Positions 1 to 27,365 of a DNA stretch of 32,000 nucleotides are shown here, one piece after another (the stretch's first letter is position 1; the number at the start of each line of letters is the position of its first letter). The translations under genes were made by a program, and so were the position numbers. Under the pieces are notes generated by a model, which saw nothing but the letters and a program-made list of their open reading frames with translations, was not told where the DNA came from and searched no databases. The DNA lies in NCBI RefSeq assembly GCF_022701215.1, contig NZ_CP089976.1, positions 720,001 to 752,000 of the forward strand, written 5' to 3'. This DNA comes from Moraxella nasovis. Lineage in GTDB: Bacteria > Pseudomonadota > Gammaproteobacteria > Pseudomonadales > Moraxellaceae.

Positions 1-91
1 GAGTGATCAGTTGGCTGACTTTATAGCAGTGTCCTTTTGGGTGAGTCATTTGTTCCCCATGATCAGCTTTCGTGTTGCATTCATCGCTCAT
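1..91 (-). CDS. Possible 5' end of an anti-sigma factor gene (partial, runs off the window start)
   Basis: The minus-strand frame is open from the ATG at 91..89 (alternative ATG at 49..47) to the window edge, reading MSDECNTKADHGEQMTHPKGHCYKVSQLIT... It starts about 50 nt downstream of the ECF sigma stop, the usual position for a cognate anti-sigma. Only about 30 codons are visible and no zinc-finger motif can be confirmed. Confidence 0.25.
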   Translation of the reverse strand, partial: MSDECNTKADHGEQMTHPKGHCYKVSQLIT

Positions 92-140
92 ATTTTATTC
101 CGTGCTAATGTTGTTGTAGCTAATGTTGTTATAAATACCA

Positions 141-746
141 TCATACATCAAACCAATGCGTCTGCAAGCATTGTTGTAGCCTTAGGCGAGTGCGGTGCAT
201 TGTGGTATAAAAGTTGGACGGACTGATTGCACACGTTTTACAAATCTCGTCTGCTTCAAAGCCGATACATTCTTTCATCAAAAAAATGCGTGCATACAAA
301 GGCGGTAAGTGCGACAAACACAGCTCCAACACCTGCCAAAATTCTGCCGATTCGCTGTCATCATCACATCGCCATGATGAAAGGTCCGCCACGTCCACAT
401 CGCCATGCCATGCTCCTTTTTGATTAAATAGCGTGGCAATCATCACCTGATCGCCATCATCGCTCATATCAGATAGGCTAAGCATCTGTTTTTGACCACG
501 AATCACATCAATGATTTTGTTTTTTAAGATGGCAAATACCCAAGTTTTGAAGGCGGATTTACCGACAAATTTATCTTGGTGCGATACTGCAAGAAGCCAA
601 GCGTCTTGTACCACATCTTCTGCCAAGGCGTGATTATTCAGCTGAGAGACGGCAAAACCTAATAGCATGGGGTATAAATCGTCTATCGCACCGTCATTGA
701 GCTCATCTTTGTGTGCATTCAATTCATCTTTTGGTGAATGTGTCAT
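141..746 (-). CDS. ECF-family (sigma-70 group 4) RNA polymerase sigma factor
   Basis: This 201-aa ORF has a region-2-like segment (EDVVQDAWLLAV...FKTWVFAILKNKIIDVIR) and a region-4-like helix-turn-helix (LPPLYARIFLMKECIGFEADEICKTCAISPSNFYTTMHRTRLRLQQCL). Its start overlaps the upstream DoxX gene by 23 nt. Confidence 0.85.
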   Translation of the reverse strand: MTHSPKDELNAHKDELNDGAIDDLYPMLLGFAVSQLNNHALAEDVVQDAWLLAVSHQDKFVGKSAFKTWVFAILKNKIIDVIRGQKQMLSLSDMSDDGDQVMIATLFNQKGAWHGDVDVADLSSWRCDDDSESAEFWQVLELCLSHLPPLYARIFLMKECIGFEADEICKTCAISPSNFYTTMHRTRLRLQQCLQTHWFDV

Positions 747-1443
747 GACTTGTCTTCATTTCGTGGTATGTGATGGTTTTGGGCTGTGTGTGTTTGTGCA
801 TCGCTTTGGCAAGCCAATAATCCACACTCAAAAATTTGCCTGCCCCAAAAAACAGCAACACCAAGAGCATTACAACATAAGTTGCCGCAAATTCAATGCC
901 GTTATTTAAGACGACAAAATTCCCTGTCTCGGTCAGCCAGTCCATGTTGCCATGCTGTTCTAAGATTTGTCTTGCCATGCCAAGCCGTTCGCCAACTTCT
1001 ACGCTATTTGCCAGACTCTGCTGGGCTAAGTCTATATTAAACCACGCAAAAAACTGTGCCGTACTGGTCGCAGGGTCGCTTGGGGCAATGGCAAACCACC
1101 CATGCTCCCAATGCACCTTAAATAGTGCCACAAGCATGGCGATGAGCATGGGAATGCTAAATAATCTGGTCGCAATCCCAAACAAGATTGCCACACCGCC
1201 CACCAATTCAGCAAAAATCGCCAACGAAACCATCAAAGCTGGCATGGGTAGCCCAAGCCCCCAATCATCATTGCCAAACCACGCCACCATATCTGAAAAA
1301 TGTAGCCACTTATGTAGCCCTGCAATGATAAAAATAGGGGCAAGATACACCCTAATGGCAACTAATGGCACAAAGTCTAATTGGCTAATCGTGCGTGCTA
1401 GTCGGTTTTGGGTGCTACATAGCTTTGTCATCATACTCATCAA
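724..1443 (-). CDS. DoxX-family integral membrane protein (HvfX/BufD-like fourth gene of MNIO metallophore operons)
   Basis: This 239-aa ORF is strongly hydrophobic with several predicted TM helices (LAPIFIIAGLHKW..., LMVSLAIFAELVGGVAILFG..., LIAMLVALFKVHWEHGW). It overlaps both neighbours, by up to 29 nt upstream and 23 nt downstream. The exact start is ambiguous among Met codons at 1443, 1440, 1434 and 1431. Confidence 0.75.
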   Translation of the reverse strand: MMSMMTKLCSTQNRLARTISQLDFVPLVAIRVYLAPIFIIAGLHKWLHFSDMVAWFGNDDWGLGLPMPALMVSLAIFAELVGGVAILFGIATRLFSIPMLIAMLVALFKVHWEHGWFAIAPSDPATSTAQFFAWFNIDLAQQSLANSVEVGERLGMARQILEQHGNMDWLTETGNFVVLNNGIEFAATYVVMLLVLLFFGAGKFLSVDYWLAKAMHKHTQPKTITYHEMKTSHDTFTKR

Positions 1444-2188
1444 TCAATATCTCTTCATTGGTTAAAAAATCTAGCAACTCTTCTGCAAATCCACGCATTT
1501 TTTCATCAAATACACTGCCCATGCCGATAAGAAAAGTCTCAAACAACGCAGACACACTCACAAAAGGTGTATCACGCTCCATCAAAAATTGTAATAATGT
1601 ATAAGTCAGTGCATTGATAGCCAAAGTATACACACCACCATCAGATTTTTGATACACCACCACAAAACTTAACTCACAGGCGATGTCTTCCACGTCATCT
1701 GCGATATTTGCGTGATGAACAGCAAACTCATAGTCCATGATGTGGGCGGTAGCGTTTAAGAAAATTTTGCGATTTTCTTGTTGTACTAGGCACTTTGGCA
1801 TAAGGCTTGGCAGTACTTCCACCAAAAGCTCCAAATGCTCATAATGAGCCAGCTCGCCAATCACGTTAGGCAGTGTGCCTTGTTTGCACTGGGTGTCCAA
1901 AAAGTGGGCAAAATCCCGATTGATGTCGGTAAAATAAGGACTGTGCAGAGCATAACTATCAAAAAACTGCTTACACAAGTCATCAAACTCATCGCCGAGT
2001 AGCCTGCGACAAATCGGAAAGCAGGCGTGAATAAAATTGGTTACACTATTAAAGGTCAAACTTTGATACAATTTGCCAACACGAGCTGGCACAAGCGTAT
2101 CATCGGACGCATCGTGTGTTTGCTGTCGCAAATAGCGACCAAATTGTGTATAAAACTGTGCCAATGGCGAATGGTCTAACGCAGTCAT
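1415..2188 (-). CDS. DUF2063-family partner protein of the MNIO enzyme (HvfC/BufC/MbnC-like role)
   Basis: This 257-aa ORF lies immediately downstream of the DUF692 gene. Its N-terminal part resembles the DUF2063 pattern (KLYQSLTFNSVTNFIHACFPICRRLLGDEFDDLCKQFF...DFAHFL). Operon context supports the call. Confidence 0.7.
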   Translation of the reverse strand: MTALDHSPLAQFYTQFGRYLRQQTHDASDDTLVPARVGKLYQSLTFNSVTNFIHACFPICRRLLGDEFDDLCKQFFDSYALHSPYFTDINRDFAHFLDTQCKQGTLPNVIGELAHYEHLELLVEVLPSLMPKCLVQQENRKIFLNATAHIMDYEFAVHHANIADDVEDIACELSFVVVYQKSDGGVYTLAINALTYTLLQFLMERDTPFVSVSALFETFLIGMGSVFDEKMRGFAEELLDFLTNEEILIDEYDDKAM

Positions 2189-2245
2189 GATTTTCGCTTC
2201 TTATTTTGCCTGTGTTCAATGTCAAGTCTTGTCATTCATCATTCA

Positions 2246-3229
2246 TTAAGCAGATAGCATGAGTGGCTCTTCGGTGTCGTGCTTTTTTTGATGGTATTGA
2301 CTGCTGTGATTTTGATATTGGCGAATGCGTGCCACTTCACCCATCAGCTCATCTAGTGCAGGGAAATTAAAATCTCTTTCTAGGCAAGTGGGCAGACTAC
2401 TGGCAGGTTTGCCTGTTTTTTGACCAATTAACTCATAAGCGTCCGCCAACAACGCCCACACTTCTTCAACCACTTGATTGCCGTGCGTGTCCACAATAAA
2501 GCCATCTTCTTCGGTAAAATGCCCTGCCATGTGTAAATAGCAAGTCCGCTCTAAGGGCAATGACCGCAAGTAGGCGTGGGGGTCAAAGCCAAAATTTTTG
2601 CTATTGACATAAATGTTGTTAATGTCTAAATGTAGCAAACAGTCGGCTTCTGCACACACCGCACTGATAAATTCGGCATCAGAGAGCGTGCTTTGTGTGG
2701 GGCGAAAATAATAAGAAGCGTTCTCAAAGCCAATTTTCTGACCCATGATGTCTTGTGCTTGCTTGATACGCCCAGCAACCCACTTGACCGCCTCTTCTGT
2801 ACAAGGAATGGGCAATAAGTCATATAAATGCCCCCAGTCATCACTACACCAAGACAAATGCTCGGTATATAAGGACATATCATGGCTTTTCATGAAACGT
2901 TTAATGTTGTTTAATAATTCAACGTCTAAGGACTGTATGCCACCAATAGATAAAGATAGCCCATGACACACAAAGTCAAAACGCTCGGTAAAGGCACGTA
3001 GCTGTTTATGATAAGCTCCGTCAATCGCCCCTTTGCCCGTCAGCCAGTTCTCAGGCGACACTTCAAAAAAATCAATGCCAAGTGGCTGTGCTTGATTAAG
3101 CTCGTCAATCAGCTCTCGGCGAAAGCCAAGTCCTGCACCTGTTGGTGCTTTGGGTGTTGGTAATTGAGTAGCAGGTGTTGTTTGGGCGGTTTTTGTTGGG
3201 ACATTGGATATATCGGATATCGTAGTCAT
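2246..3229 (-). CDS. DUF692 / MNIO (multinuclear non-heme iron oxidative) RiPP-modifying enzyme, HvfB/BufB/MbnB-like
   Basis: This 327-aa ORF shows hallmark TIM-barrel DUF692 segments (GLGFRRELIDEL, IDFFEVSPENW, SLYTEHLSW, LLHLDINNIYVN, HMAGH). A Shine-Dalgarno AAGGA sits 7 nt upstream of the ATG at 3229. Confidence 0.85.
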   Translation of the reverse strand: MTTISDISNVPTKTAQTTPATQLPTPKAPTGAGLGFRRELIDELNQAQPLGIDFFEVSPENWLTGKGAIDGAYHKQLRAFTERFDFVCHGLSLSIGGIQSLDVELLNNIKRFMKSHDMSLYTEHLSWCSDDWGHLYDLLPIPCTEEAVKWVAGRIKQAQDIMGQKIGFENASYYFRPTQSTLSDAEFISAVCAEADCLLHLDINNIYVNSKNFGFDPHAYLRSLPLERTCYLHMAGHFTEEDGFIVDTHGNQVVEEVWALLADAYELIGQKTGKPASSLPTCLERDFNFPALDELMGEVARIRQYQNHSSQYHQKKHDTEEPLMLSA

Positions 3230-3302
3230 TGTCTATCCTTACCATGCTTTTGTGGTATTCGTGGGTGTTACAGGCTTTGATGTAAGATTAGGTTTGCTAT
3301 CA

Positions 3303-3368
3303 GCTGTGTTAAACACAGCCGACAGCAAGGGTAGATTTGACCAAATCCTATGTATTCATAGAATTTGG
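3303..3368 (-). promoter_or_regulatory. Two stem-loops in the precursor-maturase intergenic spacer
   Basis: Hairpin 1 at 3341-3368 has an 11-bp stem (one G.U on the minus-strand transcript) and a 6-nt loop. Hairpin 2 at 3303-3319 is GCTGTGT-taa-ACACAGC with a perfect 7-bp stem. Neither is followed by a U tract. Confidence 0.35.
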
Positions 3369-3400
3369 CACTCAATCATGTAGGCATGATAGCATGATGA

Positions 3401-3709
3401 TTAGTTGCTACCACCACATTTAGCTTCACCGCATTTGGCATCGGCTTTTTTGCTTGTTGTGGCAGTTGCACCGCATTTAGCTTCGCCACATTTGGCGTTT
3501 GCTTTTTTGGTCGCTGTGCTTTTGGCAGCACCACAAGAAGCGTCAGCACATTTTTTGTTGTGTGTTTTTTTGCCGCCGCAGCTGGCGTTGGCACATTTTG
3601 AGTCTTTGGCGTTATTTGAGGTGCTTGTTGAGGTGAATGGATTAGCGTGAGCTGCTGATAATGCCAATAAAGATGAAGCGGTTAGTGCCACAACGGTAGA
3701 TTTTTTCAT
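3401..3709 (-). CDS. Secreted Cys-rich RiPP precursor of the HvfA/oxazolin (EGKCG-like repeat) type
   Basis: This 102-aa ORF has a Sec signal MKKSTVVALTASSLLALSAAHA|NPF. The Lys/Ala/Thr-rich core carries four CX4C doublets: KCANASCG, KCADASCG, KCGEAKCG and KCGEAKCG. A Shine-Dalgarno AAGGAA sits 5 nt upstream. It is the first gene of the DUF692 operon. Confidence 0.8.
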   Translation of the reverse strand: MKKSTVVALTASSLLALSAAHANPFTSTSTSNNAKDSKCANASCGGKKTHNKKCADASCGAAKSTATKKANAKCGEAKCGATATTSKKADAKCGEAKCGGSN

Positions 3710-3935
3710 AACATTTCCTTAAAGATGGATTGGGATAAAATTGGGCATAGCATGACATCATCACATGCCCCACAGCCATGATATTAGTAGCTGCTTAATG
3801 AATTAGACGAATCAGGTAGGGGTTTTCTTACACCACCCACAAAAAAAAATTAAAAATCAGTTAAATTTTTTATAACTCTATGATTTTAATTAATTTATAT
3901 CAATCCGCTTTATTTTATTTTTAACCACACTTTCA

Positions 3936-3963
3936 TAAAAAAGGATGCTTTCACACCCTTTTT
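3936..3963 (-). terminator. Rho-independent terminator downstream of msrAB
   Basis: The minus-strand transcript reads AAGGGUG-ugaaag-CAUCCUU followed by a U run. The stem is 7 bp with one G.U pair. It lies about 105 nt after the msrAB stop. Confidence 0.5.
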
Positions 3964-4065
3964 ACTCATGTCGTTATATAACGATTTAAAATAACACTAA
4001 GCAAAATACCCAACATGCATCGCCTATCAGGACGTCTGGGCACAGTGTCATTATAATTTTATTAC

Positions 4066-5703
4066 TTATAACAGCGACTTCACCGCTCCATAACCCTTAG
4101 CGTCCAATTCATCAAAAGGCACGAACAACAAAGCATCACCATTGATACAATACCTAAGTCCGCCTTTGTCTTTGGGACCATCTTCAAACACATGACCCAA
4201 ATGACTGTCTGCCACACGAGACCGCACTTCTGTGCGTTTCATATAAAAGCTGTTGTCCTCATGTCTAGTAATCACCGCAGGATCAATCGGCTTGGTAAAA
4301 GATGGCCAACCACAGCCAGAATTGTATTTATCACTGGATAAAAAAAGCGGCTCGCCACTGACGATATCCACATATAGCCCTTTTTCAAACAAATGATCAT
4401 AAGCATGGCTAAACGCCCGTTCCGTGCCTGCGTTTTGTGTGATGTTGTATTGAGCATGCGTCAGCTTATCTTTGAGCGTGGCTTTGTCAAAATTTTGGTA
4501 GCGTTTTGGGTTTAGGGCATCAGCCAACGTGGTTGCAGGTGATAGATGGGTGGACTGGGTTTTATTTTCTAGGGGTACATACGCCTTGGATACATCAATG
4601 TGGCAATAGCCGTTTGGATTTTTGGTCAAATAATCTTGATGATAATCCTCAGCTTCATAAAAATGTGTCAATGCTTCGTTTTGTACAGCAATCGGCTGAT
4701 TAAATTTTTTGGATAAGTCATAAAGTGCGTTGGCAATCACCGCACGATCGCTTGCGTCTGTATAATAAACACCTGTGCGATATTGCACACCCCTATCATT
4801 GCCTTGCTTATTGACACTGATTGGGTCAATGACTCTAAAATAATAAGCCAGTATGTCCTCCAAGCTAAGCCTATCTGTATCAAAAGTTACTTTGACAGTC
4901 TCGGCATGACCTGAACCTGCAATCACCTCTTGATAGCTTGGATTGGCGGTATTGCCATTGGCATAACCTGAGACAGCGTCTACCACGCCATCAATTCGCT
5001 CAAAGTACGCCTCCAAACCCCAAAAACAACCCCCAGCCAAATAGATGGTTTTGGTGTGCATGGGCATACCGTCTGATTTATAGGCTTTTTGGGTATTTTT
5101 GGCAGTCAAATCTTGCATTTTTAGTTCGGCAAAATCACTGTCGCTACTATTTGCCAAAGCCATCGCTTGGGCGTGCGTCAGATTGCCCTTCACAACACGC
5201 ACCACATTGCCTGATTTATCCAAAATCACCCAACTTGGATAGACACTCACCCCAAAGGTTTTGGCAAGATTTTGGGTGCGGTCAGCAAGCACGGGCAGAT
5301 TTGGATAATCCACGCCCACCTTATCATACCACGCCACAAAATCATCATAAGATTGCTCACCCAAATAACCAGGTGTCGCCACACTCACCAAATTCACCCC
5401 ATCAAAAGCAGGGTTGCCACGATAGTCGTTGGTCTCTTGCAAGGTCGCCAAACACAAAGGACACCAACTCGCCCAAAACTTAATCAAAGTCGGCTTATTA
5501 GGGTCAATCATATCAGCACCCATCTTGCCAAGATGATGAGCAAGATTAGGCAGCCCCTTTAATTGGGTTAAAGTATCGCTTGGCAAAACGTGCATGGTAT
5601 CGTCCTGTGTGGTGTGGGCTTGGCTTGGTGTGTTGGTTTGGGCATGGCAAGCAACAACCAAACACATCGCTGTAATACAGCTCATTAAGGTTCTTTGTTT
5701 CAT
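4066..5703 (-). CDS. msrAB: Trifunctional thioredoxin-MsrA-MsrB peptide-methionine sulfoxide reductase (PilB-like), probable lipoprotein
   Basis: This 545-aa ORF has a signal peptide with lipobox-like LVVAC. It carries a Trx motif (WASWCPLC), an MsrA motif (GGCFWG) and MsrB motifs ([19 protein letters not shown]). Confidence 0.92.
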
Positions 5704-5778
5704 AAAACATGTCGCAAAAATAGTATGGCAACAACCATCTCATCTACAAAAATGTAGATAAAATCAGCAAGTATACCA

Positions 5779-5787
5779 AGAATTATA
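5779..5787 (-). promoter_or_regulatory. Candidate extended -10 promoter (TGcTATAAT) for msrAB
   Basis: The minus strand reads ...gtgTGcTATAATtc... about 80 nt upstream of the msrAB ATG. There is no good -35 at 17-nt spacing. Confidence 0.3.
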
Positions 5788-6042
5788 GCACACTAAAAAA
5801 ATGACAAGTACATCAATCTTAACTTAATTTTGACTTTAAAAAAATCAATGATAGATTGAGCCTTCATGAAACAAACCCAACATAGGAACATGCAAAACAC
5901 ATGAATGCACACGTTGGGTTTTGCAAGTTCAATAAAACCGACAATAACCAACTCACCCACCTTTGCAATTTGAGAGTTTTTTTAAGTTGGGTATGGGATA
6001 ATATTGGAATAATATTTTGCAAAAAAAAATAATAAAAAACAC

Positions 6043-6071
6043 TTGTCAATGTACGTGAATGGTGCTAATTT
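6043..6071 (+). promoter_or_regulatory. Candidate sigma-70 promoter for amiE
   Basis: TTGTCA (6043-6048) and TAATTT (6066-6071) are separated by a 17-nt spacer, about 55 nt upstream of the amiE ATG. An AAGGAG ribosome-binding site lies at about 6112-6117. Confidence 0.3.
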
Positions 6072-6125
6072 AATGTTAAAGGAATGCCAATAATCAAAAC
6101 CTGTAAAAACAACAAGGAGTGAACA

Positions 6126-7166
6126 ATGCGTCATGGTGATATCAGTAGCAGCCCAAATACCGTTGGTGTTGCTGTCGTCAATTATAAAATCCCCCGCCTG
6201 CACACCAAGGCAGAAGTCTTGGAAGAATGCCATAAAATCAGTGAAATGATTAAGGGCATTAAGATGGGTTTGCCGGGTTTGGATTTGATTATCTTTCCAG
6301 AATACAGCACCCAAGGTATCATGTATGATGCCGATGAGATGATGGCAACCGCCGCAACCGTCCCTGGTGATGAGACGGCGATTTTTTCACAGGCGTGCCG
6401 TGATAATAACGTCTGGGGCGTGTTCTCCATCACAGGCGAACGCCACGAAGAACACCCCAAAAAATCACCATACAACACCCTAATTCTCATCAACGACCAA
6501 GGCGAGATTGTCCAAAAATACCGCAAAATCATTCCTTGGTGTCCCATAGAAGGCTGGTGTCCTGGCGATACCACTTATGTGAGCGAAGGTCCTAAGGGGA
6601 TTAAGCTGTCTTTGATTATCTGTGATGACGGCAACTATCCTGAGATTTGGCGAGATTGTGCGATGAAAGGGGCTGAACTTATCATTCGCTGTCAAGGCTA
6701 TATGTACCCTGCATTAGACCAACAAGTGATGATGTCGCAAACGATGGCATGGTGCAATAACTGCTATGTGGCAGTCGCCAATGGCACAGGATTTGATGGT
6801 GTGTATACCTACTTTGGTCATTCAGCACTGATTGGCTTTGATGGGCGAACACTAGGACGGTGTGGCACCGAAGAAAACGGCATTCAATACGCCCAATTAT
6901 CTTTGACCGAAATCCGTGATGCCAGAAAATACGACCAATCTCAAAACCATTTATTCAAATTGTTACATCGTGGTTATACAGCCACTCATAATGATGGCGA
7001 TGGCGATAAAGGCATTGCTGATTGTCCCTTTGAGTTTTATCGCACATGGGTATTGGACGCACAAAAAGCCCAAGAAAACGTAGAGCAATTCACTCGCACG
7101 ACCGTAGGCGTTGCCGAATGCCCTGTGGGTAACGTACCCCACGAAGGCAAAGAAAAACACGTCTAG
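6126..7166 (+). CDS. amiE: Aliphatic amidase (nitrilase superfamily)
   Basis: This 346-aa ORF matches, from memory, Pseudomonas aeruginosa AmiE nearly end to end ([23 protein letters not shown]..., [44 protein letters not shown]). Confidence 0.93.
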
Positions 7167-7182
7167 GCTTTTATCCATGTCA

Positions 7183-7217
7183 GGCTGTGCCGACCAATCC
7201 TTTTGGTTGGCACAGCC
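7183..7217 (+). promoter_or_regulatory. Strong stem-loop between amiE and amiB
   Basis: GGCTGTGCCGACCAA-tcctt-TTGGTTGGCACAGCC forms a 15-bp stem with one G.U pair and a 5-nt loop. It starts 17 nt after the amiE stop and has no U tract. Confidence 0.5.
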
Positions 7218-7279
7218 CACCATAAAGTCCTATCAAAAAAGCCCTATCAAACTACCCAAATACACCAAAAGGAACGTCC

Positions 7280-8365
7280 ATGACCTTTATGAGTGATCGC
7301 CTTGCCCAAAATCAAGCAGAAAACGAAGAAAAACGCCAAAAAGCCAATCATCAGACACCCGCCAAATCAGAAAAAGCCGAGCAAGCCATCACACACGCCA
7401 AATATGCCCGCTTTGCTTTTGATGTCAATGAGATTATGGCGAAACTTTCTGCCACAATCGTAGGACAAGGCGATGCCCTACAACAAATTGAACAAATGCT
7501 GACGGTGGTTAAGGCAGATTTCAACCCAAAAGACAAACCCTTATCCGTTACCTTAATGCTTGGACCGACAGGGGTTGGTAAGACCGAAACGGTGCGTATC
7601 ATCAGCGAAGCTATCTACGGCAATGCCAACGCCTTTTGTCGTATTGACATGAACACCTTAGCCCAAGAGCATTATAGTGCCGCCCTGACAGGAGCACCGC
7701 CGGGCTATGTTGGTAGCAAAGAAGGCAATACGTTATTTAACCTTGAAGCGATTGCAGGCAGTTTTTCTAAGCCTGGTATCGTCTTATTTGATGAAATAGA
7801 AAAAGCAAGCAACGAAGTGATTAGAGCATTGCTCAATGTGCTAGATACAGGCAAACTCACGCTAACTTCTGGTACTAAGGCGATTGATTTTAGTAATTGC
7901 ATGATTTTTATGACCAGTAATGTGGGTGCAAGAGCCAGCCAAATTCGCTTGGAACAATTAAATAAACTGCCCGCCACTCTACAAAGCTTGGCAGGCAGAT
8001 TAAAATTGGACGAGACAACCTTAGTCCAAAAAGCCCTTGAACGTAAATTTGACCCTGAATTTATTAACCGCATTGAGCGTATCTTGGCTTACCAAAAAAT
8101 CAACGACGACCAAATCCCCAAACTGATTGACATTGAACTTGATAAACTCAATGCCCGCCTAAGCAAAAAAGATCATCATGTTCAGCTGACCAATGACGCT
8201 GTCAACTACCTAGCCGATGGCTATGATGTGCGGTATGGAGCAAGGGGGCTTGGGCGAAAAATACGCACCGAGCTTGAACCTTTATTGGCAAGTTGGTATT
8301 TGGCACACCCTGACGATGGCACGGTAATCGTTGATGCTTGTGCTGATGGTCTGTGCATTGCGTGA
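7280..8365 (+). CDS. amiB: Stand-alone Clp D2-like AAA+ ATPase (AmiB-like)
   Basis: This 361-aa ORF has Walker A (GPTGVGKTE), Walker B (IVLFDEIEKA), a sensor (FMTSN) and a ClpB-D2-small-like C-terminus (RYGARGLGRKIRTELE). It lies directly downstream of amiE, as in the Pseudomonas ami operon. Confidence 0.7.
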   Translation: MTFMSDRLAQNQAENEEKRQKANHQTPAKSEKAEQAITHAKYARFAFDVNEIMAKLSATIVGQGDALQQIEQMLTVVKADFNPKDKPLSVTLMLGPTGVGKTETVRIISEAIYGNANAFCRIDMNTLAQEHYSAALTGAPPGYVGSKEGNTLFNLEAIAGSFSKPGIVLFDEIEKASNEVIRALLNVLDTGKLTLTSGTKAIDFSNCMIFMTSNVGARASQIRLEQLNKLPATLQSLAGRLKLDETTLVQKALERKFDPEFINRIERILAYQKINDDQIPKLIDIELDKLNARLSKKDHHVQLTNDAVNYLADGYDVRYGARGLGRKIRTELEPLLASWYLAHPDDGTVIVDACADGLCIA

Positions 8366-8550: not shown

Positions 8551-10713
8551 TTAATCCCCCTGATAGCCTTTTAGCTTCAAGCGTGCCTTGTGTAGGAGTG
8601 GCTCGGTATAGCCAGATGGCTCGGTTGTGCCTTTGAAAATTAGGTCTTTGGCGGCATTAAAGGCGATGTTATTGTCAAAATCGCTCGCCATTGGGCGATA
8701 TTCAAGGTCGCCCTTGTTTTGCTCGTCCACAACTTTTGCCATGCGTTTTAAAGCTTCCATCACATCGTCTTCGCTCACAATGCCATGGGTTAGCCAATTG
8801 GCGATGTGCTGACTTGAAATGCGTAGCGTGGCACGGTCTTCCATCAGCCCCACATTATGAATGTCAGGCACTTTTGAACAACCCACGCCCAAATCTACCC
8901 ATCTGACGACATAACCCAAAATACCTTGACAATTATTGTCCAATTCACGGCGTTTGACTTCATCGCCAAAGTTGGTGTCTGTCGCCAAAGGCAAGGTCAA
9001 TAAGTCGTCCAAACTTGGCACCGCTTCGCCAAGCAGTTCATCTTGGCGGTCCAAGACACAGCACTGGTGGTAATGAATGGCGTGAATGGTCGCACCAGAT
9101 GGCGATGGCACCCATGCACAGCTTGCCCCCGCTTGGGGGTGTTCAATCTTCGTGCGGTACATATCGGCAAGCTCATCAGGCTTTGGCCACATACCTTTGC
9201 CAATTTGGGCTTTTGAACGCAGACCTGCATTTAGACCAATGGCGACATTGCGTTTTTCATAAGCATCAAACCAAACTTGCTTTTTGATGTCGCCTTTTGG
9301 GACAAACGCCCCTGCCTGCATGGCGGTGTGAATCTCATCACCTGTTCTGTCCATAAAGCCAGTATTGATAAAGATGGTGCGGTCTTTTGCCTTGGCGATG
9401 CAATTTTTTAGGTTGGCGGACGTGCGTTTTTCTTCGTCCATAATCCCCATTTTGACCGATTTGGCAGGCAGTCCGATGGCTTTTTCGGCACGCTCAAACA
9501 GCTCCACAGCAAACGCCACTTCGTCTGAGCCGTGCATTTTGGGTTTGACGATGTACATAGAGCCTGTACGAGAGTTACGCAATGTGTTTTCGCCACGAAT
9601 ATCAACCGCACTTAGCATGGGCGTGATGAGTGCGTCCATAATCCCTTCAAAAATCTCTTCGCCATCTACAAGAATGGCAGGATTGGTCATCAAATGCCCC
9701 ACATTACGAAGGAGCATGACCGAACGCCCATGCAGAGTTTGGGTGTCGCCATTTAGGTCGGTATAAGTGCGGTCGTCATTGAGCATGCGGGTGATGGTTT
9801 TGCCGTTTTTTTCTACTTGTTCAGACAAATCCCCCTTCATCAAACCCAACCAATTACGATAACCTTCTACTTTCTCGCTGGCATCTACTGCCGCCACCGA
9901 ATCTTCTAGGTCTTGAATGGTGGTAACCGCCGATTCCATCACAACATCTTTTACACCTGCTTTGTCAGACTTGCCGATGGCGTGCGTGCGGTCAATTTGA
10001 ATAATGACGTGTAAGCCGTTGTTTTTTAGGATAATTTCGCTTGGGCTGTCAGGCTCGCCATTATAGCCGACTAACTGTTCGGCATTTTTTAAAGTCGTCT
10101 TGCTATCGCCGATTTGTGCCAAAAGTTTAGCGTCTTTGATGGCATAAGCCGTTACATCGCTGTGCAAGCCGTCTGTTAGGGAGAAAGTCTCATCAAGGAA
10201 ATTTTTGGCAAATTCAACGACTTTTGCCCCACGCACAGGGTTATAGCCTACCCCCTTGTCCGCACCGTCTGTTTGGGGGATAACATCAAAGCCGTACAAA
10301 GCATCATACAGCGACCCCCAGCGGGCATTACCTGCGTTTAGGGCATAGCGAGCATTACGCACAGGCACGACAAGCTGAGCCCCTGAAATCGTTGCAATTT
10401 CGTCATCTACATTGTCTGTGGTGATTTGAAAATCATCAACTTCTGGTTCAAGATAACCAATATCAGTCAAAAAACTTTTATAGGCACTTAGCTCATAAGG
10501 GTTGTTTTTGTGCCATTCATCAATCTTGGCTTGTAGTTCGTCTCGCTTGGCAAGCAAGGCTTTATTTTTTGGGGTCAAATCACGCACAACTTGCTCAAAG
10601 TTTTGCCAATAAGTATTGCTGTCAATCCGTGCAACAGGTAGGGCTTCTTGTTCAATAAAGTCAAATAAAATCTTGTCAATGGCAAGTGTGCCTTTTTGGA
10701 TACGGTCGGTCAT
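8551..10713 (-). CDS. glcB: Malate synthase G
   Basis: This 720-aa ORF has the length and sequence typical of GlcB (MTDRIQKGTLAID..., ...MYIVKPKMHGSDEVAF..., ...GMWPKPDELADM...). A Shine-Dalgarno AAGGA lies upstream. Confidence 0.93.
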   Translation of the reverse strand: MTDRIQKGTLAIDKILFDFIEQEALPVARIDSNTYWQNFEQVVRDLTPKNKALLAKRDELQAKIDEWHKNNPYELSAYKSFLTDIGYLEPEVDDFQITTDNVDDEIATISGAQLVVPVRNARYALNAGNARWGSLYDALYGFDVIPQTDGADKGVGYNPVRGAKVVEFAKNFLDETFSLTDGLHSDVTAYAIKDAKLLAQIGDSKTTLKNAEQLVGYNGEPDSPSEIILKNNGLHVIIQIDRTHAIGKSDKAGVKDVVMESAVTTIQDLEDSVAAVDASEKVEGYRNWLGLMKGDLSEQVEKNGKTITRMLNDDRTYTDLNGDTQTLHGRSVMLLRNVGHLMTNPAILVDGEEIFEGIMDALITPMLSAVDIRGENTLRNSRTGSMYIVKPKMHGSDEVAFAVELFERAEKAIGLPAKSVKMGIMDEEKRTSANLKNCIAKAKDRTIFINTGFMDRTGDEIHTAMQAGAFVPKGDIKKQVWFDAYEKRNVAIGLNAGLRSKAQIGKGMWPKPDELADMYRTKIEHPQAGASCAWVPSPSGATIHAIHYHQCCVLDRQDELLGEAVPSLDDLLTLPLATDTNFGDEVKRRELDNNCQGILGYVVRWVDLGVGCSKVPDIHNVGLMEDRATLRISSQHIANWLTHGIVSEDDVMEALKRMAKVVDEQNKGDLEYRPMASDFDNNIAFNAAKDLIFKGTTEPSGYTEPLLHKARLKLKGYQGD

Positions 10714-10737
10714 ATTTTATCCTTAAAATCAATCATT

Positions 10738-10776
10738 TAAAAAAAACGGTGCTTTGCTTTTTACAAAACACCGTTT
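10738..10776 (-). terminator. Rho-independent terminator after aceA, upstream of glcB
   Basis: The minus-strand transcript reads AAACGGUG...CACCGUUU followed by about 8 U. The loop can extend the stem by 4-5 more pairs. Confidence 0.6.
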
Positions 10777-10893
10777 ACAGTCAATTTAGGTGAGACCAAG
10801 CGGATAAATGCTAATGCAAGGAAAACGAGCGAAGCTGTACAAGTAGTACTGCAAGCGAGTTTGACGAAGCAGTAGCGTTTAGCCGAGCAGGTC

Positions 10894-12498
10894 TTAGCCG
10901 CCAAACTGGTTCATGGTGTTCTTACTCGCATCTCCTGCTTTTAGGGCATTATCACCAGAGAAAATCTCTTTGTGGTCATCGCCAATATCGGAGCCTGCCA
11001 TCGCTTGATGCTTCACGCAAGCGATTCCGCCACGAATTTCTTTACGCTGAACACCTGCCACATAAGCGAGCATACCTTCATCACCAAAGTAGCCTTTGGC
11101 AAGCTCATGTGTAGATAAGGCAGCAGTGTGGTAAGTTGGCAGTGTGATTAGGTGATGGAACACGCCTGCCTCACGAGCGGCATCAGCTTGGAAAGTGCGG
11201 ATTTTGTCATCGGCATCACGGGCAAGCTCGCTGTCGTCATATTGTGCGTCCATCAGTTTGGCACGGTCGTAGCCTGATACATCTTTGCCCTCGGCAACCC
11301 AGCGGTCGTAGGCTTGCTGACGGAAGTTTAGCGTCCAGTTAAATGATGGCGAATTGTTGTACACCAATTTGGCATCTGGTACTTGTTTTTTGATGTCGTT
11401 CACAAAACTTGCAATGGCAGCCACATCTGGCGTTGGCGTTTCAATCCAAATCATGTCCGCACCGTTTTGAAGTGATGTTACGCAGTCTAGCACCACACGG
11501 TCATGCTGTGTGCCTTTACGGAACTGATATAAACCTGACGGCAAGCGAGTGGGTCTGTGTAATTTGCCATCACGCTTGATGAGAATTTCGTCATCAAAGG
11601 CATCAGCGATGTCAATCTCGGCGGTTTCTAGGTAGCTGATGTATTTGCTTGCCAAATCGCCTTTTTCTTTTGATACTGGGATTTTTTGGGTCAAATCCGC
11701 CCCTTCTGAGTCGGTACGAGCGACAATCACGCCATCATCAACGCCAAGCTCCAAAAACGCATAACGCACGGCGTTAATCTTAGCCAAAAAGTCTTCGTGC
11801 GGTACCGTAACTTTACCTGCTTGGTGTCCGCATTGCTTGGCATCTGACACTTGGTTTTCAATCTGAATGGCACACGCCCCAGCTTCAATCATCTGCTTGG
11901 TCAAAAGATAAGTCGCCTCTTCGTTACCAAAGCCTGCATCAATGTCAGCGATGATTGGCACGACATGGGTTTCAAAATTATCAATTTGACTTTCAATCTC
12001 TTTGGCAAGGGCGGTATCGCCTGCTTCTTCTGCCTTTTGTAAGGCACGAAATAGGTCATTTAATTCTTTGGCATCTGCTTGACGAAGGAAAGTATAAATC
12101 TCGGCGATGAGTTTTGGCACAGCGGTTTTTTCGTGCATGGACTGGTCAGGCAATGGACCAAACTCAGAACGCAGTGCCGCCACCATCCAACCTGATAGGT
12201 AGATGTAGCGTTTGTCGGTTGTGCCAAAGTATTTTTTATTGGCAATCATTTTTTGTTGGGCGATAAATCCATGCCAACAGCCGAGCGACTGGGTGTATTT
12301 GCTGTTATCAGCGTCGTATTCTGCCATGTCACGACGCATGATTGATGCGGTGTATTTGGCGATGTCAAGTCCTGTTTTAAAGCGGTTTTGCACCATCATA
12401 CGGGCAGCGTCATCGGGGCAGATAGCACCCCAAGTATCGCCAAGCTTGGCTTTTACGTTCTTCACGTGTTGTAGTGCTGATTGATAAGACTGTGTCAT
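10894..12498 (-). CDS. aceA: Isocitrate lyase (long, Pseudomonas/Acinetobacter-type form)
   Basis: The ORF track gives 541 aa starting at 12519. I prefer the ATG at 12498 (MTQSYQSALQ...) because AAGGAG lies 7-8 nt upstream of it. The protein is ICL-like throughout (KQCGHQAGKV). Confidence 0.92.
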   Translation of the reverse strand: MTQSYQSALQHVKNVKAKLGDTWGAICPDDAARMMVQNRFKTGLDIAKYTASIMRRDMAEYDADNSKYTQSLGCWHGFIAQQKMIANKKYFGTTDKRYIYLSGWMVAALRSEFGPLPDQSMHEKTAVPKLIAEIYTFLRQADAKELNDLFRALQKAEEAGDTALAKEIESQIDNFETHVVPIIADIDAGFGNEEATYLLTKQMIEAGACAIQIENQVSDAKQCGHQAGKVTVPHEDFLAKINAVRYAFLELGVDDGVIVARTDSEGADLTQKIPVSKEKGDLASKYISYLETAEIDIADAFDDEILIKRDGKLHRPTRLPSGLYQFRKGTQHDRVVLDCVTSLQNGADMIWIETPTPDVAAIASFVNDIKKQVPDAKLVYNNSPSFNWTLNFRQQAYDRWVAEGKDVSGYDRAKLMDAQYDDSELARDADDKIRTFQADAAREAGVFHHLITLPTYHTAALSTHELAKGYFGDEGMLAYVAGVQRKEIRGGIACVKHQAMAGSDIGDDHKEIFSGDNALKAGDASKNTMNQFGG

Positions 12499-12891
12499 GA
12501 TACTACTCCTTATTGTCATGATGTGCTAGGCACGGGGTTTTGGTAAGAAAAAGATGGTCAAACCATTTGACTTCATCATCTTTAAACACAGCATACAAAA
12601 ATCTTTGCACCTTGACTACCCTATGAAACTGTATATTCACTATTTATATAAAAAATGATACTAGTTTTATTATTAAAATATTAAATATAATAAGACGCTT
12701 TGGTGGTTCATTGACAGTACTTCGCCTGCTTTTGCTTGCGTTATGGTGTTTTTGGGTGAGCTTTGTTAAAATTGAGCCAATAACAGCTTTTATGCAATCA
12801 ATTTTGTATAATTTGGTACAGGCTTACAATGCCACCCCCTTGGCGATTATAGCAATCGCCTAAAATCCACCCTAACCGATGAAAGCACATA

Positions 12892-17280: not shown

Positions 17281-18117
17281 TTACCAGCCTTTAACCACGC
17301 CATCTTTAAATTGCTTTTTCGCTTCTGCTTCTACTTCATCAGATTGGAAAGCTTTTACATAGTCTTGAACTGCTTTAGAATCTTTGTTATCAGCACGAGC
17401 AACGATGATATTGACATAAGGAGAATCCTTATCTTCAACGAACACACCATCATTAGCTGTTAGACCAACTTGGGCTGCATAGTTGTTGTTCACAACCGCT
17501 AAATCCACATCATCCAATGCACGAGCTGCAACTGAAGTATCCACTTCTTGGATTTTTAAATTTTTTGGGTTTTCAATGATGTCAATTGATGTTGAGAATA
17601 AATTGGTATTGTCTTTTAGCTTAATTAACCCTTGTTTCTCAAGCAAAATTAACGCACGAGCTAGGTTTGATGGATCGTTTGGTACAGCGATGGTTGCACC
17701 ATCTTGTAGCTCTGCTACTGTTTTAATCTTCTTAGAGTAACCAGCCAGTGGATATACAAAAGTATTACCCACGATTACTAGGTTATCAAGACTCTTCTCA
17801 GCGCTGTCTTTATCTAGGTATGGCTTATGCTGAAAAGCGTTCGCATCAAGCTCACCTTTAGATACTGCTGTGTTTGGTAACGCATAGTCATTAAATTCGG
17901 TGTATTCTACCACTAGACCATATTTTTCTTTAGCAATCTTTGCTGCCACTTCTGCTACTGCATGCTCAGGACCGCTCATTACGCCCACCTTTAGGACTTG
18001 GGCTTCTTCTGTTGCTGCAGGTGTTGCTGCTTGGTCAGCAGGCTTATCCCCACCACAGCCAGCAAGTGCGATACCAGACGCCAAAGCACAAACACCGAAA
18101 AATTTTGATAGTTTCAT
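17281..18117 (-). CDS. metQ: Methionine ABC transporter substrate-binding lipoprotein
   Basis: I start it at the Met giving MKLSKFFGVCALASGIALAGCGG, which has lipobox LAGC. The ORF-track start at 18183 would add 22 unlikely residues. The protein is NlpA/MetQ-like throughout. Confidence 0.88.
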   Translation of the reverse strand: MKLSKFFGVCALASGIALAGCGGDKPADQAATPAATEEAQVLKVGVMSGPEHAVAEVAAKIAKEKYGLVVEYTEFNDYALPNTAVSKGELDANAFQHKPYLDKDSAEKSLDNLVIVGNTFVYPLAGYSKKIKTVAELQDGATIAVPNDPSNLARALILLEKQGLIKLKDNTNLFSTSIDIIENPKNLKIQEVDTSVAARALDDVDLAVVNNNYAAQVGLTANDGVFVEDKDSPYVNIIVARADNKDSKAVQDYVKAFQSDEVEAEAKKQFKDGVVKGW

Positions 18118-18275
18118 AACATTCTCTCGTTTTAAGTGATAAAAAAAAGATGACGATTTCATAAAAACCGTCAGTAAATGCATATTAAAGCATAATTTAA
18201 ACCAAATAGAAATATTTTATTAACAAAATCACTCAATTTTTTCGTATAAAGCTTATTCCATTTTAGAATAAATAC

Positions 18276-18971
18276 TTAGCGATGGTCGTACTTTTGTGCT
18301 AATACGTCGCCAATTTTTTGGCAAATCATCACAAACGCCACGATGATAATGGTTGAAAGCCACTTAACATAGACCATGCCACGGTGTTCGCCATAACTGA
18401 TGGCAAGGTTACCAAGACCACCGCCACCAACCACGCCTGCCATTGCAGAATAACTGATAAGCGTAATCATCGTGATGGTGATGGCATTGATTAAAATTGG
18501 TAAACTTTCTGGCAAATAGTACTTAAATACCACTTGAGAGCGGGTCGCTCCCATGGATTTGGCAGCTTCGGTCAGCCCTGTTGGAATCTCGGTTAATGCG
18601 TTTGCCGTCAAGCGTGCAAAAAACGGAATCGCCGCCACGCTCAAAGGCACAATGGCAGCTGTCGTACCTAGACTTGTCCCCACTAAAAAGCGAGTAACAG
18701 GCAATAGGATAATTAATAAAATAATAAACGGAATGGATCGCCCAATATTAATAACCACATCAAGCAGCTCAAACATCGGTTTATTAGCAAGTAAGCGATC
18801 TTTACCAGTTAAGAATGCAAAAAACCCCATCGGCAGACCAAATAGCACCGAAATCAAAGTGGACATGATGCCCATATACACCGTTTCATAAGTGGATTTG
18901 GCGACCATTTGCCACATCTGCGGTGTCAGCTCAGCGATAAAGCCTTGATATAATTCATGCCACATAGCCAA
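18276..18971 (-). CDS. metI: Methionine ABC transporter permease
   Basis: This 231-aa multi-TM ORF has an EAA-like loop ([21 protein letters not shown]). Its start overlaps the metN stop. Confidence 0.9.
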
Positions 18972-20004
18972 GCACCTCTGCTGTTACGCCATTTTCATAT
19001 AAAAATTTTCTCGCCTGCTGTGTCTTATCTACATCGCCTATCATCTCAGCAATGGTGAAGCCAAACTTAACCTCGCCTACATAGTCCATCTGCGACGTTA
19101 AAATATTAAACTCCACGCCATATTGCTTAGTCGCTTGAGAAAACAGCGGCATATCCACCGAATTGCCAGTAAAACCAAACTTCACGACAGGATAAGTTTG
19201 CATAGGCGTGGGCGTTTGGCTTAGCTTAGATAGATAAGCTTGTGGCAGACGAACGTGGAAAGTCGATCCGATGAACTGCTTTGCAAGTTCGGTCTGTGGA
19301 TTAGCAAAAAGCTCGCTCACTTTACCAGACTCAACCACCACACCCAGATCCATCACCGCAACCTTATCACAGATCTGCTTAACCACATCCATCTCATGGG
19401 TGATTAATAAGATGGTAATGCCAAGTTTGCGATTGATTTTTTTGAGTAAAGATAAAATCGCCTGAGTAGTCGCAGGGTCTAAGGCACTGGTCGCTTCATC
19501 ACAAAGTAGCACTTTTGGATCGCACGCTAAGGCACGAGCGATGGCAACACGCTGCTTTTGACCACCTGATAGATTAGCAGGATACACATGCTCTTTACCA
19601 TTAAGACCGACAAGCTCTATCAAACGAGACACCTTTTGATGGATAGTGTTTTTGGGCGTTTGGGAAAGCTCTAAAGGCAAAGCAATGTTATCAAACACGG
19701 TGCGAGAATGCAGCAGATTAAAATGCTGAAAAATCATGCCTATATGACGACGAGCCTCCACAAGTTCACGCTCACTAAGCGCGGTTAAATCCTGACCGCT
19801 TAGCATAACCTTGCCTGTTGTCGGACGCTCTAGCAAATTAATGCAGCGAATCAGTGTTGATTTACCTGCACCAGATGAGCCGATAATGCCAAATATCTCG
19901 CCTTGTTGCACACAAAGAGTAGTTGGATGAACAGCGGTAAATTGTGTGGTTTTACTATCTTTTTGGATGTTAAAGACCTTGCTTACATCGATAAGCTGTA
20001 TCAT
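18955..20004 (-). CDS. metN: Methionine ABC transporter ATP-binding protein with C-terminal NIL domain
   Basis: The protein is colinear with E. coli MetN from memory ([11 protein letters not shown]..., [48 protein letters not shown]). An alternative start lies at 20013. Confidence 0.9.
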
Positions 20005-20042
20005 AGAATCCATGATGTTATCTAAATTATAAAAATAGTACT

Positions 20043-26825: not shown

Positions 26826-27365
26826 ATGGATTATCACATGAAAGCTATCGGCACAAAATTATCTCTTGCATTTGGCGGTTTACTTTTGGTAAATGCTAGT
26901 GCTATTGCCAACGACCAAACAAAGGTTGATACGATCAAAAAAATATATCAGCGTGCAATTGATTGTAATGATAGCTCGATTTGTGGTGATAATCCTATTT
27001 GGTCTTATCTTGATGATAGCCTACGCTCTGCTGTTAAGCACGCCTATGAGAATAAAGACTTGGGGGATATCTCAGGAGACCCTTTCCATCCATGTACTGA
27101 TTGGGGATTTGGTGATAATGCCCTATTAGGCTGGTCGCAAGATTCGCCACTTGGTGGTTTTAAGATGAATCAGTTTCAATTTTCAATCCTTAAAAATGGC
27201 GATGTTCGTGCCAAATTTAAAGACATCGTAAATAAGAGACAAAACTTCCCTAGTTTTTTTGTAGATATTAAACTATCTGAGTTTGGCAATACTTATAAAA
27301 TATCTGATATTATTAGTCATGGCGACAGCTTTAAAGACCATCTTAATCAATGCCATTTGTACTAG
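26826..27365 (+). CDS. Hypothetical secreted protein (179 aa, 5 Cys in the mature part)
   Basis: AAGGA lies 9 nt upstream of the ATG. The Sec-type signal is MDYHMKAIGTKLSLAFGGLLLVNASAIA|NDQ. The gene is followed by its own terminator. It looks more A+T-rich than its neighbours by eye. I do not recognise a family. Confidence 0.65.
   Translation: MDYHMKAIGTKLSLAFGGLLLVNASAIANDQTKVDTIKKIYQRAIDCNDSSICGDNPIWSYLDDSLRSAVKHAYENKDLGDISGDPFHPCTDWGFGDNALLGWSQDSPLGGFKMNQFQFSILKNGDVRAKFKDIVNKRQNFPSFFVDIKLSEFGNTYKISDIISHGDSFKDHLNQCHLY

Follow-up and report, generated by a model that had tools for sequence, protein, structure and literature searches.

A further copy of the known hvf peptide metallophore operon, with a probable sigmaE-type switch, in Moraxella nasovis

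Which of the known copper-binding ribosomal peptide systems does Moraxella nasovis carry, how is it likely to be switched on, and is anything about it new? The question is raised by a 32-kb stretch of the M. nasovis genome (contig NZ_CP089976.1, positions 720,001 to 752,000; hereafter the window, with positions counted from its first letter), at one end of which an earlier note had read a complete MNIO (DUF692) metallophore operon with its own extracytoplasmic function (ECF) sigma factor. From the sequence alone, we consider it very probable that this region is the M. nasovis hvf (oxazolin, or Buf_EGKCG) operon, in which the genes for a ribosomal peptide metallophore are joined to a self-activating sigmaE/zinc-anti-sigma switch of the kind known from Neisseria. 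What the present analysis adds is the sigmaE-type promoter at 3831-3802 and its conservation in the Moraxellaceae, the hairpins that follow the precursor gene, and an msrAB neighbor that has no sigmaE-type site.

The list of open reading frames (ORFs) for the window contains six genes in the same direction on the minus strand, with the coordinates and overlaps that had been given for them earlier. In the direction of transcription they are hvfA (3401-3709, 102 aa), for the precursor of the modified peptide, with a putative Sec signal; hvfB (2246-3229, 327 aa), for an MNIO (DUF692) cysteine-modifying iron enzyme; hvfC (1415-2188, 257 aa), for its RRE-containing partner; hvfX (724-1443, 239 aa), for a DoxX-type membrane protein; the gene of an ECF sigma factor of the sigmaE/RpoE2 type (141-746, 201 aa); and the 5' end of a probable anti-sigma gene (1-91), which starts with an ATG at 91 and whose frame leaves the window edge. 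An AAGGA Shine-Dalgarno sequence lies 6 nt 5' of the hvfA ATG, and a spacer of 171 nt separates hvfA from hvfB. The remaining genes are more tightly packed: 57 nt lie between the hvfB stop and the hvfC start, the hvfC-hvfX overlap is 29 nt long for a TTG start (15-26 nt for ATG starts just downstream), hvfX and the sigma gene overlap by 23 nt, and 49 nt part the sigma stop codon from the anti-sigma ATG.

Family membership was decided by the curated NCBIfam cut-offs, with Pfam domains as a second library, and these profile hidden Markov models (HMMs), whose matches greatly exceed what chance would give, uphold all of the family assignments made earlier. The product of 2246-3229, on whose DUF692/MNIO identity the earlier interpretation depended, matches PF05114 (MbnB_TglH_ChrH, MNIO/DUF692) with 307 bits against a cut-off of 25 (E=1.3e-91), and the HvfB model NF003818 with 379.2 against 360, along the entire profile (positions 1-264 of 264). 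With NF050145, HvfC reaches 149.3, for a cut-off of 142, and it also matches PF09836 (DUF2063) and PF22106 (NGO1945_C), while its match to PDB 3DEE is weak; HvfX scores 214.5 against 80 with NF050144 and matches PF07681 (DoxX). The sigma factor has the Sigma70_r2 and Sigma70_r4_2 domains and reaches 191.7 against 162.2 with TIGR02943. The precursor contains the HvfA-family domain NF050137 (KCGExKCG_twice; 45.5 against 19.5), which fits best at residues 72-100, and a Pfam scan of this protein gave zero matches, DUF2282 included.

Two neighboring classes were considered and set aside on the same scores. Membership in bufferin-1/2 fails at the BufB model NF050167 (236.6, below its cut-off of 310) and with a precursor that has no DUF2282 match, and membership in the methanobactins fails at the MbnB model TIGR04159 (35.1, below 325). 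Since the HvfB, HvfC, HvfX and KCGExKCG_twice models are passed and the BufB and MbnB cut-offs are not, the cluster as judged by its profiles belongs to the HvfA/oxazolin (Buf_EGKCG) class and is neither a bufferin-1/2 nor a methanobactin cluster. The enzyme also appears sound in detail: the motifs HGLSLS(89), EHLS(123), ENASYY(169), HLDINN(200), HMAGH(233), DTHG(247) and LERDF(283) are all intact and align to the di-iron MNIO structure PDB 3BWW, which reportedly shares 72% identity with H. influenzae HvfB. By motif mapping, the HLDxNN and DTH motifs probably hold the site-3 ligands N175, D242 and H244 (H. influenzae HvfB numbering).

The eight cysteines that had been noticed in the precursor at 3401-3709 are indeed present, at residues 39, 44, 54, 59, 74, 79, 93 and 98, and form four C-x4-C-G units, two of them canonical KCGEAKCG and two non-canonical KCA(N/D)ASCG. 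Its N-terminus, with MKK, a hydrophobic core and LSAAHA|NPF, resembles a Sec signal as judged by eye.

The operon is preceded by a promoter-like element on the minus strand that consists of a -35 element GTAAGAAAA (3831-3823), a 13-nt spacer and a -10 element CGTCTAAT (3809-3802). From there the distance down to the hvfA ATG is 92 nt, and an A/T-rich stretch precedes the element at 3860-3841. The Neisseria sigmaE consensus is GTMAGBWTT-12/13 nt-CGTCTAAH (PMC2893595), and the M. nasovis element agrees with its -10 at 8 of 8 positions and with its spacer length. The pattern GTAAG...GTCTA occurs at this single site in the window. For comparison we assembled 15 other Moraxellaceae loci from a one-genome-per-species scan (Psychrobacter spp., M. 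nonliquefaciens, lacunata, bovoculi, bovis, equi, canis, macacae and others), and at least 12 of the related loci have the same motif, TTGTAAGAWAW-12/13 nt-CGTCTAAG, 5' of their precursor gene. A position weight matrix built solely from 11 related loci gives the hvfA promoter 26.1 bits, with 15.2 bits for the runner-up and 18.9 bits for the maximum among the 20 shuffles of the window that served as the null. The runner-up (12996, minus strand), about 480 nt upstream of aceA, was set aside, as it falls within the range of the shuffles.

The sigma factor is 43-49% identical to the sigma factor in the same position in 14 Moraxellaceae loci. The earlier suggestion that an anti-sigma gene begins at the window edge is supported by its position and by its cysteine context, and the 30-aa fragment alone is too short to score and has no family match. 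The fragment has an N-terminal cysteine, and the context of its Cys22 (HCYKVSQLIT) resembles HCYRIIHLIS in Moraxella sp. Pampa (locus L033). Among 12 related loci inspected, 11 have 3' of the sigma gene an ORF of 60-85 aa with an N-terminal Cys and H-x3-C-x2-C; all four of the relatives' proteins that were tested match zf-HC2 (three above the Pfam cut-off) and three of the four match NF052368 'antisigmaE' (two above the cut-off).

Two long, perfect hairpins of 13 bp (3368-3341) and 16 bp (3328-3294) occupy the hvfA-hvfB spacer on the minus strand. The fold of 3225-3405 has an energy of -57.4 kcal/mol (z=-6.0), and none of 200 shuffles was equally stable. A strong hairpin directly 3' of the precursor stop codon is found in 9 of 14 related loci, where the sequences are unrelated. 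These folding results suggest that the hairpins may act as an intra-operon attenuator or mRNA stabilizer that sets the ratio of precursor to enzyme in favor of the precursor. A search of the whole 32 kb with Rfam at the gathering threshold gave no matches, and so no known small RNA or riboswitch is involved.

Comparison with characterized systems places these elements in context. The H. influenzae hvf operon, whose product is named oxazolin, has the same four protein families, three of which score above NCBIfam equivalog cut-offs here; it likewise has a precursor with eight cysteines and KCGExKCG repeats (and with a Sec signal, which in M. nasovis is putative), an MNIO enzyme with a DUF2063/RRE partner, and expression that depends on an ECF sigma factor, RpoE2. 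In contrast to M. nasovis, where hvfX is the last of the hvf genes, it comes first in H. influenzae (HvfX-HvfA-HvfB-HvfC), and the H. influenzae operon comprises four genes and no sigma factor, whereas a sigma and a probable anti-sigma gene lie within that of M. nasovis. The repeats differ too, with EGK and three canonical repeats in H. influenzae HvfA against EAK, two canonical and two KCAxASCG units in the M. nasovis precursor. Hypochlorous acid (HOCl) induces the doxX/hvf genes of H. influenzae in an RpoE2-dependent manner (PMC7907618).

The regulatory part finds its counterpart in the Neisseria sigmaE operon (PMC2893595, PMC3240639), six genes for a DoxX protein, three small or 'hypothetical' proteins, RpoE and the small zinc-binding anti-sigma (ZAS) factor MseR. 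It includes the DUF2063 protein NGO1945, whose C-terminal domain model matches M. nasovis HvfC, and it shares its promoter consensus with the M. nasovis element. The Neisseria genes (NMB2140-NMB2145 / NGO1948-NGO1943) are co-transcribed and autoregulated, and deletion of MseR de-represses both the operon and msrAB (PMC2893595). In Neisseria the operon begins with the DoxX gene, which in M. nasovis stands fourth, and msrAB is unlinked but sigmaE-dependent in the former, whereas in the latter it is adjacent without a recognizable sigmaE promoter. The claim that the M. nasovis cluster has its own ECF sigma factor is borne out; the arrangement itself had been reported for the Neisseria sigmaE operon in 2006-2010 (PMC2893595).

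The gene order precursor, MNIO, DUF2063, DoxX is that of the A-B-C-D genes of the Caulobacter vibrioides Buf1 and Buf2 clusters (PMC11626156; MNIO landscape, PMC12452194), which encode Sec-exported precursors and are known for 5-thiooxazole chemistry and periplasmic copper buffering. The bufferin precursors are, however, of the DUF2282 type or contain 6 or 12 cysteines, with no such match in the M. nasovis precursor, and their control lies with SigF and the membrane anti-sigma factor NrsF, not with a small cytoplasmic ZAS protein. The methanobactin proteins MbnA, MbnB and MbnC share the MNIO fold and the iron-dependent oxidation of cysteine to a Cu(I)-binding heterocycle, but methanobactin is an oxazolone/thioamide product with a leader peptide and with dedicated export and uptake systems.

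The chemistry of the product had been called undecidable from the sequence, and the literature now favors 5-thiooxazole for this family, HvfA included. In H. influenzae HvfBC modifies six cysteines of HvfA to give a product that binds Cu(I) (PMC11252979); that laboratory and others have since revised the modification from the oxazolone/thioamide first described to 5-thiooxazole (bioRxiv 10.64898/2026.07.17.739211). The modified cysteines of bufferins are likewise 5-thiooxazoles, and bufferins protect Caulobacter from copper; BufD1, the DoxX protein homologous to HvfX, is dispensable for modification there (PMC11626156).

Taken together with these precedents, the features of the locus suggest a model for its activity. 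By analogy, a small cytoplasmic zinc-binding anti-sigma factor would hold the ECF sigma factor until thiol-reactive or oxidative envelope stress, of the HOCl type in H. influenzae, sets it free. Sigma-bound RNA polymerase would then fire the GTAAGAAAA-13 nt-CGTCTAAT promoter, whose activity we infer from its sequence, and transcribe hvfA-hvfB-hvfC-hvfX-sigma-antisigma, giving positive autoregulation. The hairpins after hvfA would probably keep the precursor mRNA in excess over that of the enzymes. In the cytoplasm, HvfB and its RRE partner HvfC would oxidize some or all of the eight precursor cysteines to 5-thiooxazoles, as H. influenzae HvfABC and Caulobacter BufABC do (bioRxiv 10.64898/2026.07.17.739211, PMC11626156). 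Sec export and cleavage by signal peptidase I after AHA22 would release an 80-residue Lys/Ala-rich periplasmic peptide, which, as in the characterized systems, may chelate Cu(I) through its heterocycles and buffer copper during host-type stress. If all eight cysteines are modified and two heterocycles serve each copper as in methanobactin, the peptide could bind up to four Cu(I).

Several observations weigh against so complete an identification. The precursor scores only 43.9 against the cut-off of 95 of the HvfA equivalog model NF050188 and so, by this sequence-based criterion, is a member of the HvfA family and not a strict orthologue. It lacks the 'M..GYQN' motif that follows the signal peptide in 11 of the 16 related precursors compared, and half of its cysteine pairs are non-canonical KCAxASCG, which makes recognition by HvfC and the number of cysteines modified uncertain. 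The -35 element agrees with the Neisseria consensus at only 6 of 9 positions, the anti-sigma gene is represented by just 30 codons with its ZAS motif beyond the window edge, and in meningococci oxidative stimuli failed to induce the sigmaE operon (PMC2893595). In addition, no sigmaE-type site was found upstream of msrAB (5704-6125) by exact -10, regular expression or the weight matrix.

These departures bear on how the locus is to be interpreted. It is possible, if short of an even chance, that only the two C-terminal KCGEAKCG repeats are modified, so that their four cysteines give four heterocycles, not eight, and the KCA(N/D)ASCG pairs persist as thiols or a disulfide. H. influenzae HvfA is modified solely at the six cysteines of its EGKCG repeats and its other two are left untouched, the NCBIfam repeat model settles on residues 72-100 of the M. 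nasovis precursor, and the first cysteine of each non-canonical pair precedes Ala instead of Gly. Against such a restriction, the C-x4-C-G spacing is retained in all four units, single 'A(S/A/G)CG' units make up the greater part of related Moraxella precursors, a sign that the enzyme may tolerate them, and even small fragments of HvfA are modified by HvfB. The same divergent precursor, below the equivalog cut-off, together with the apparent loss of sigmaE control by msrAB, could be taken as a sign of a decaying or silent remnant; yet all five complete ORFs are unbroken and of full length by comparison with their profiles, the tested motifs are conserved, and neither the translational overlaps nor the Shine-Dalgarno sequence nor the promoter has been lost, making such a remnant very improbable, the least likely of the explanations that we considered.

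The role of the product is a separate matter. The peptide may primarily serve envelope defense against hypochlorite and oxidative damage alongside MsrAB, with copper binding secondary, as would fit control by a redox-type ZAS anti-sigma factor instead of a metal sensor, the induction of H. influenzae doxX/hvf by HOCl through RpoE2, the periplasmic Trx-MsrA-MsrB gene beside the operon (upstream here, after the anti-sigma gene in L033), and the ties of DoxX proteins to thiol and oxidative stress. We regard this as on the unlikely side, given that Cu(I) binding is the sole biochemical activity demonstrated for the mature peptides, that bufferins give a copper-growth phenotype, and that msrAB has no sigmaE-type promoter in M. 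nasovis; the two roles are in any case compatible, for phagocytes use both copper and HOCl. Far less probable is a methanobactin-like copper-acquisition chalkophore that is secreted and then re-imported with its copper. The shared enzyme superfamily and the cysteine-derived Cu(I)-binding heterocycles would allow it, but the MbnB model is reached with 35 bits of the 325 required, an apparent Sec signal stands in place of a cleaved leader, no TonB-dependent receptor, periplasmic binding protein or MATE exporter is found among the NCBIfam names of the neighboring genes, and the regulator is of a stress type and not of a copper-starvation type. We therefore retain the hvf operon with its sigmaE/zinc-anti-sigma switch as the preferred interpretation. 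A more specific proposal, which we put forward as speculative and rather doubtful, is that the M. nasovis precursor, without 'M..GYQN' and with two KCAxASCG units, is a distinct substrate variant, and that msrAB and the operon form a compact copper-plus-oxidant envelope-defense island that may be evolving within the Moraxellaceae.

The hvf system is widespread in the Moraxellaceae and automatically recognized, as shown by the shared gene order and by database names. The hvfB-hvfC-hvfX-sigma run occurs in 13 of the 15 related loci; the remaining two are that of M. macacae, which is without hvfX, and L010, a second M. lacunata locus that is outside the 13 counted yet carries the run. The relatives' HvfB proteins are 60-70% identical to that of the window, and all 15 loci have a precursor ORF 5' of hvfB. 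A 100% identical full-length M. nasovis entry for HvfB is named 'HvfB family MNIO-type RiPP peptide maturase' in UniRef, the exact HvfC sequence is 'HvfC family RiPP maturation protein' in UniRef, and the exact HvfX sequence is 'HvfX family Cu-binding RiPP maturation protein' in both RefSeq and UniRef, each of them from M. nasovis; the exact 102-aa precursor sequence was absent from the protein collection in which HvfC and HvfX were matched. The earlier remark that no characterized member was known from a Moraxellaceae-like organism holds for experimental studies, of which our literature search found none on a Moraxellaceae member ('Moraxella' and 'Psychrobacter' being absent from the MNIO main texts searched and from the other MNIO papers that the search listed); in databases, the M. 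nasovis proteins already carry Hvf names. The supplement of the MNIO landscape paper surveys Moraxellaceae genomes; the two from Psychrobacter that it shows are without such a cluster, and it does not name M. nasovis (PMC12452194). The M. nasovis locus is accordingly genuine, but an ordinary representative of the known hvf operon, and is not novel, because curated models for it exist, its proteins are already named, the linkage to a sigma factor has been known in Neisseria since 2006-2010 and the chemistry has been answered.

The relatives show variations of their own. In the group of M. bovoculi, bovis, equi, lacunata and nonliquefaciens (L006-L012) about 2 kb separate the precursor gene from hvfB downstream of it, and a sigmaE-type promoter is still found 5' of the precursor. 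In L009 the gap contains two additional ORFs, which by eye resemble a 438-aa FAD/NAD(P) pyridine-nucleotide-disulfide oxidoreductase (4027-5343) and a 127-aa rhodanese-like lipoprotein (5387-5770). A lipobox (LSAC, LTAC, LSGC, VVGC and similar) replaces the signal-peptidase-I site in 9 of 16 related HvfA-type precursors compared (L001 5453-5929, L002 5005-5310, L003 5675-5956, L004 5376-5768, L005 5660-5938, L006 3593-3988, L009 3569-3934, L013 5560-5883 and L014 5388-5759), and four Psychrobacter loci have tandem precursors, one with a lipobox and one of the signal-peptidase-I type. Precursors with a lipobox are thus candidate lipopeptide metallophores anchored in the membrane; in the MNIO landscape paper, Buf2 is the only case for which lipoprotein signals are reported (PMC12452194).

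Upstream of the operon and on the same strand, msrAB (4066-5703) encodes a Trx-MsrA-MsrB protein with a signal peptide (NF010625, 812 against a cut-off of 522; PMSR, SelR and Redoxin domains). A terminator-like hairpin with a U-run, AAAAAGGGUGUGAAAGCAUCCUUUUUUAU, appears 3' of the gene in the fold of 3920-4070 (3963-3935, minus strand) and parts msrAB from the hvf promoter; it is absent from the results of a consensus terminator scan. In Neisseria and H. influenzae msrAB belongs to the sigmaE/RpoE2 regulon (PMC2893595, PMC7907618). Because no sigmaE-type promoter precedes the M. nasovis gene, its co-regulation with the hvf operon is not supported by the sequence. The divergent msrAB/amiE intergenic region contains, by eye, a sigma-70-like TTGTCA...TGtgcTATAAT with an extended -10 at 5807-5782. 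Moraxella sp. Pampa has its msrAB directly 3' of the anti-sigma gene (L033 9384-11030). From these two placements, upstream of hvfA and 3' of the Pampa anti-sigma gene, the linkage of msrAB recurs, and from the gene positions two separate recruitments of msrAB to the flanks of the operon appear to have taken place, each to a different side.

The remainder of the window is housekeeping: amiE, glcB, aceA, a Mn-pyrophosphatase, glyA, ccmC/E, metQIN, ssb, uvrA, nadD, rsfS and bioA/D. An aliphatic amidase of the amiE type (NF009802, 687 against 427) is followed, within 6126-8365, by a 361-aa protein that has only the C-terminal AAA part of ClpB/ClpA and that, next to amiE, may be an AmiB-like accessory ATPase. 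The glyoxylate-shunt genes for malate synthase G and isocitrate lyase are adjacent at 8551-12519 (minus strand). The genes of a complete methionine ABC importer, metQ-metI-metN, occupy 17281-20013 (minus strand), 12 kb from msrAB, a nearness that is probably coincidence, and a 179-aa ORF at 26826-27365 (plus strand) has no NCBIfam match at E<=1e-8.

The value of the locus is confirmatory, for a family that has curated HMMs and whose M. nasovis members were family-named beforehand. As a Moraxella precursor with non-canonical repeats, its HvfA would be a handy test of HvfBC substrate scope, and conversion of all eight cysteines, if true, would widen the known sequence tolerance of HvfBC. If the notion of a defense island is true, the relatives add to it lipoprotein-anchored precursors and a disulfide-reductase/rhodanese pair. 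The whole module of precursor, MNIO enzyme, RRE partner, DoxX protein, sigmaE, ZAS anti-sigma and promoter sequence is shared by Betaproteobacteria (Neisseria) and Moraxellaceae, both of them mucosal colonizers. This conservation speaks in favor of one and the same copper/oxidant defense device behind both the Neisseria 'sigmaE operon of hypothetical proteins' and the hvf virulence operon of H. influenzae.

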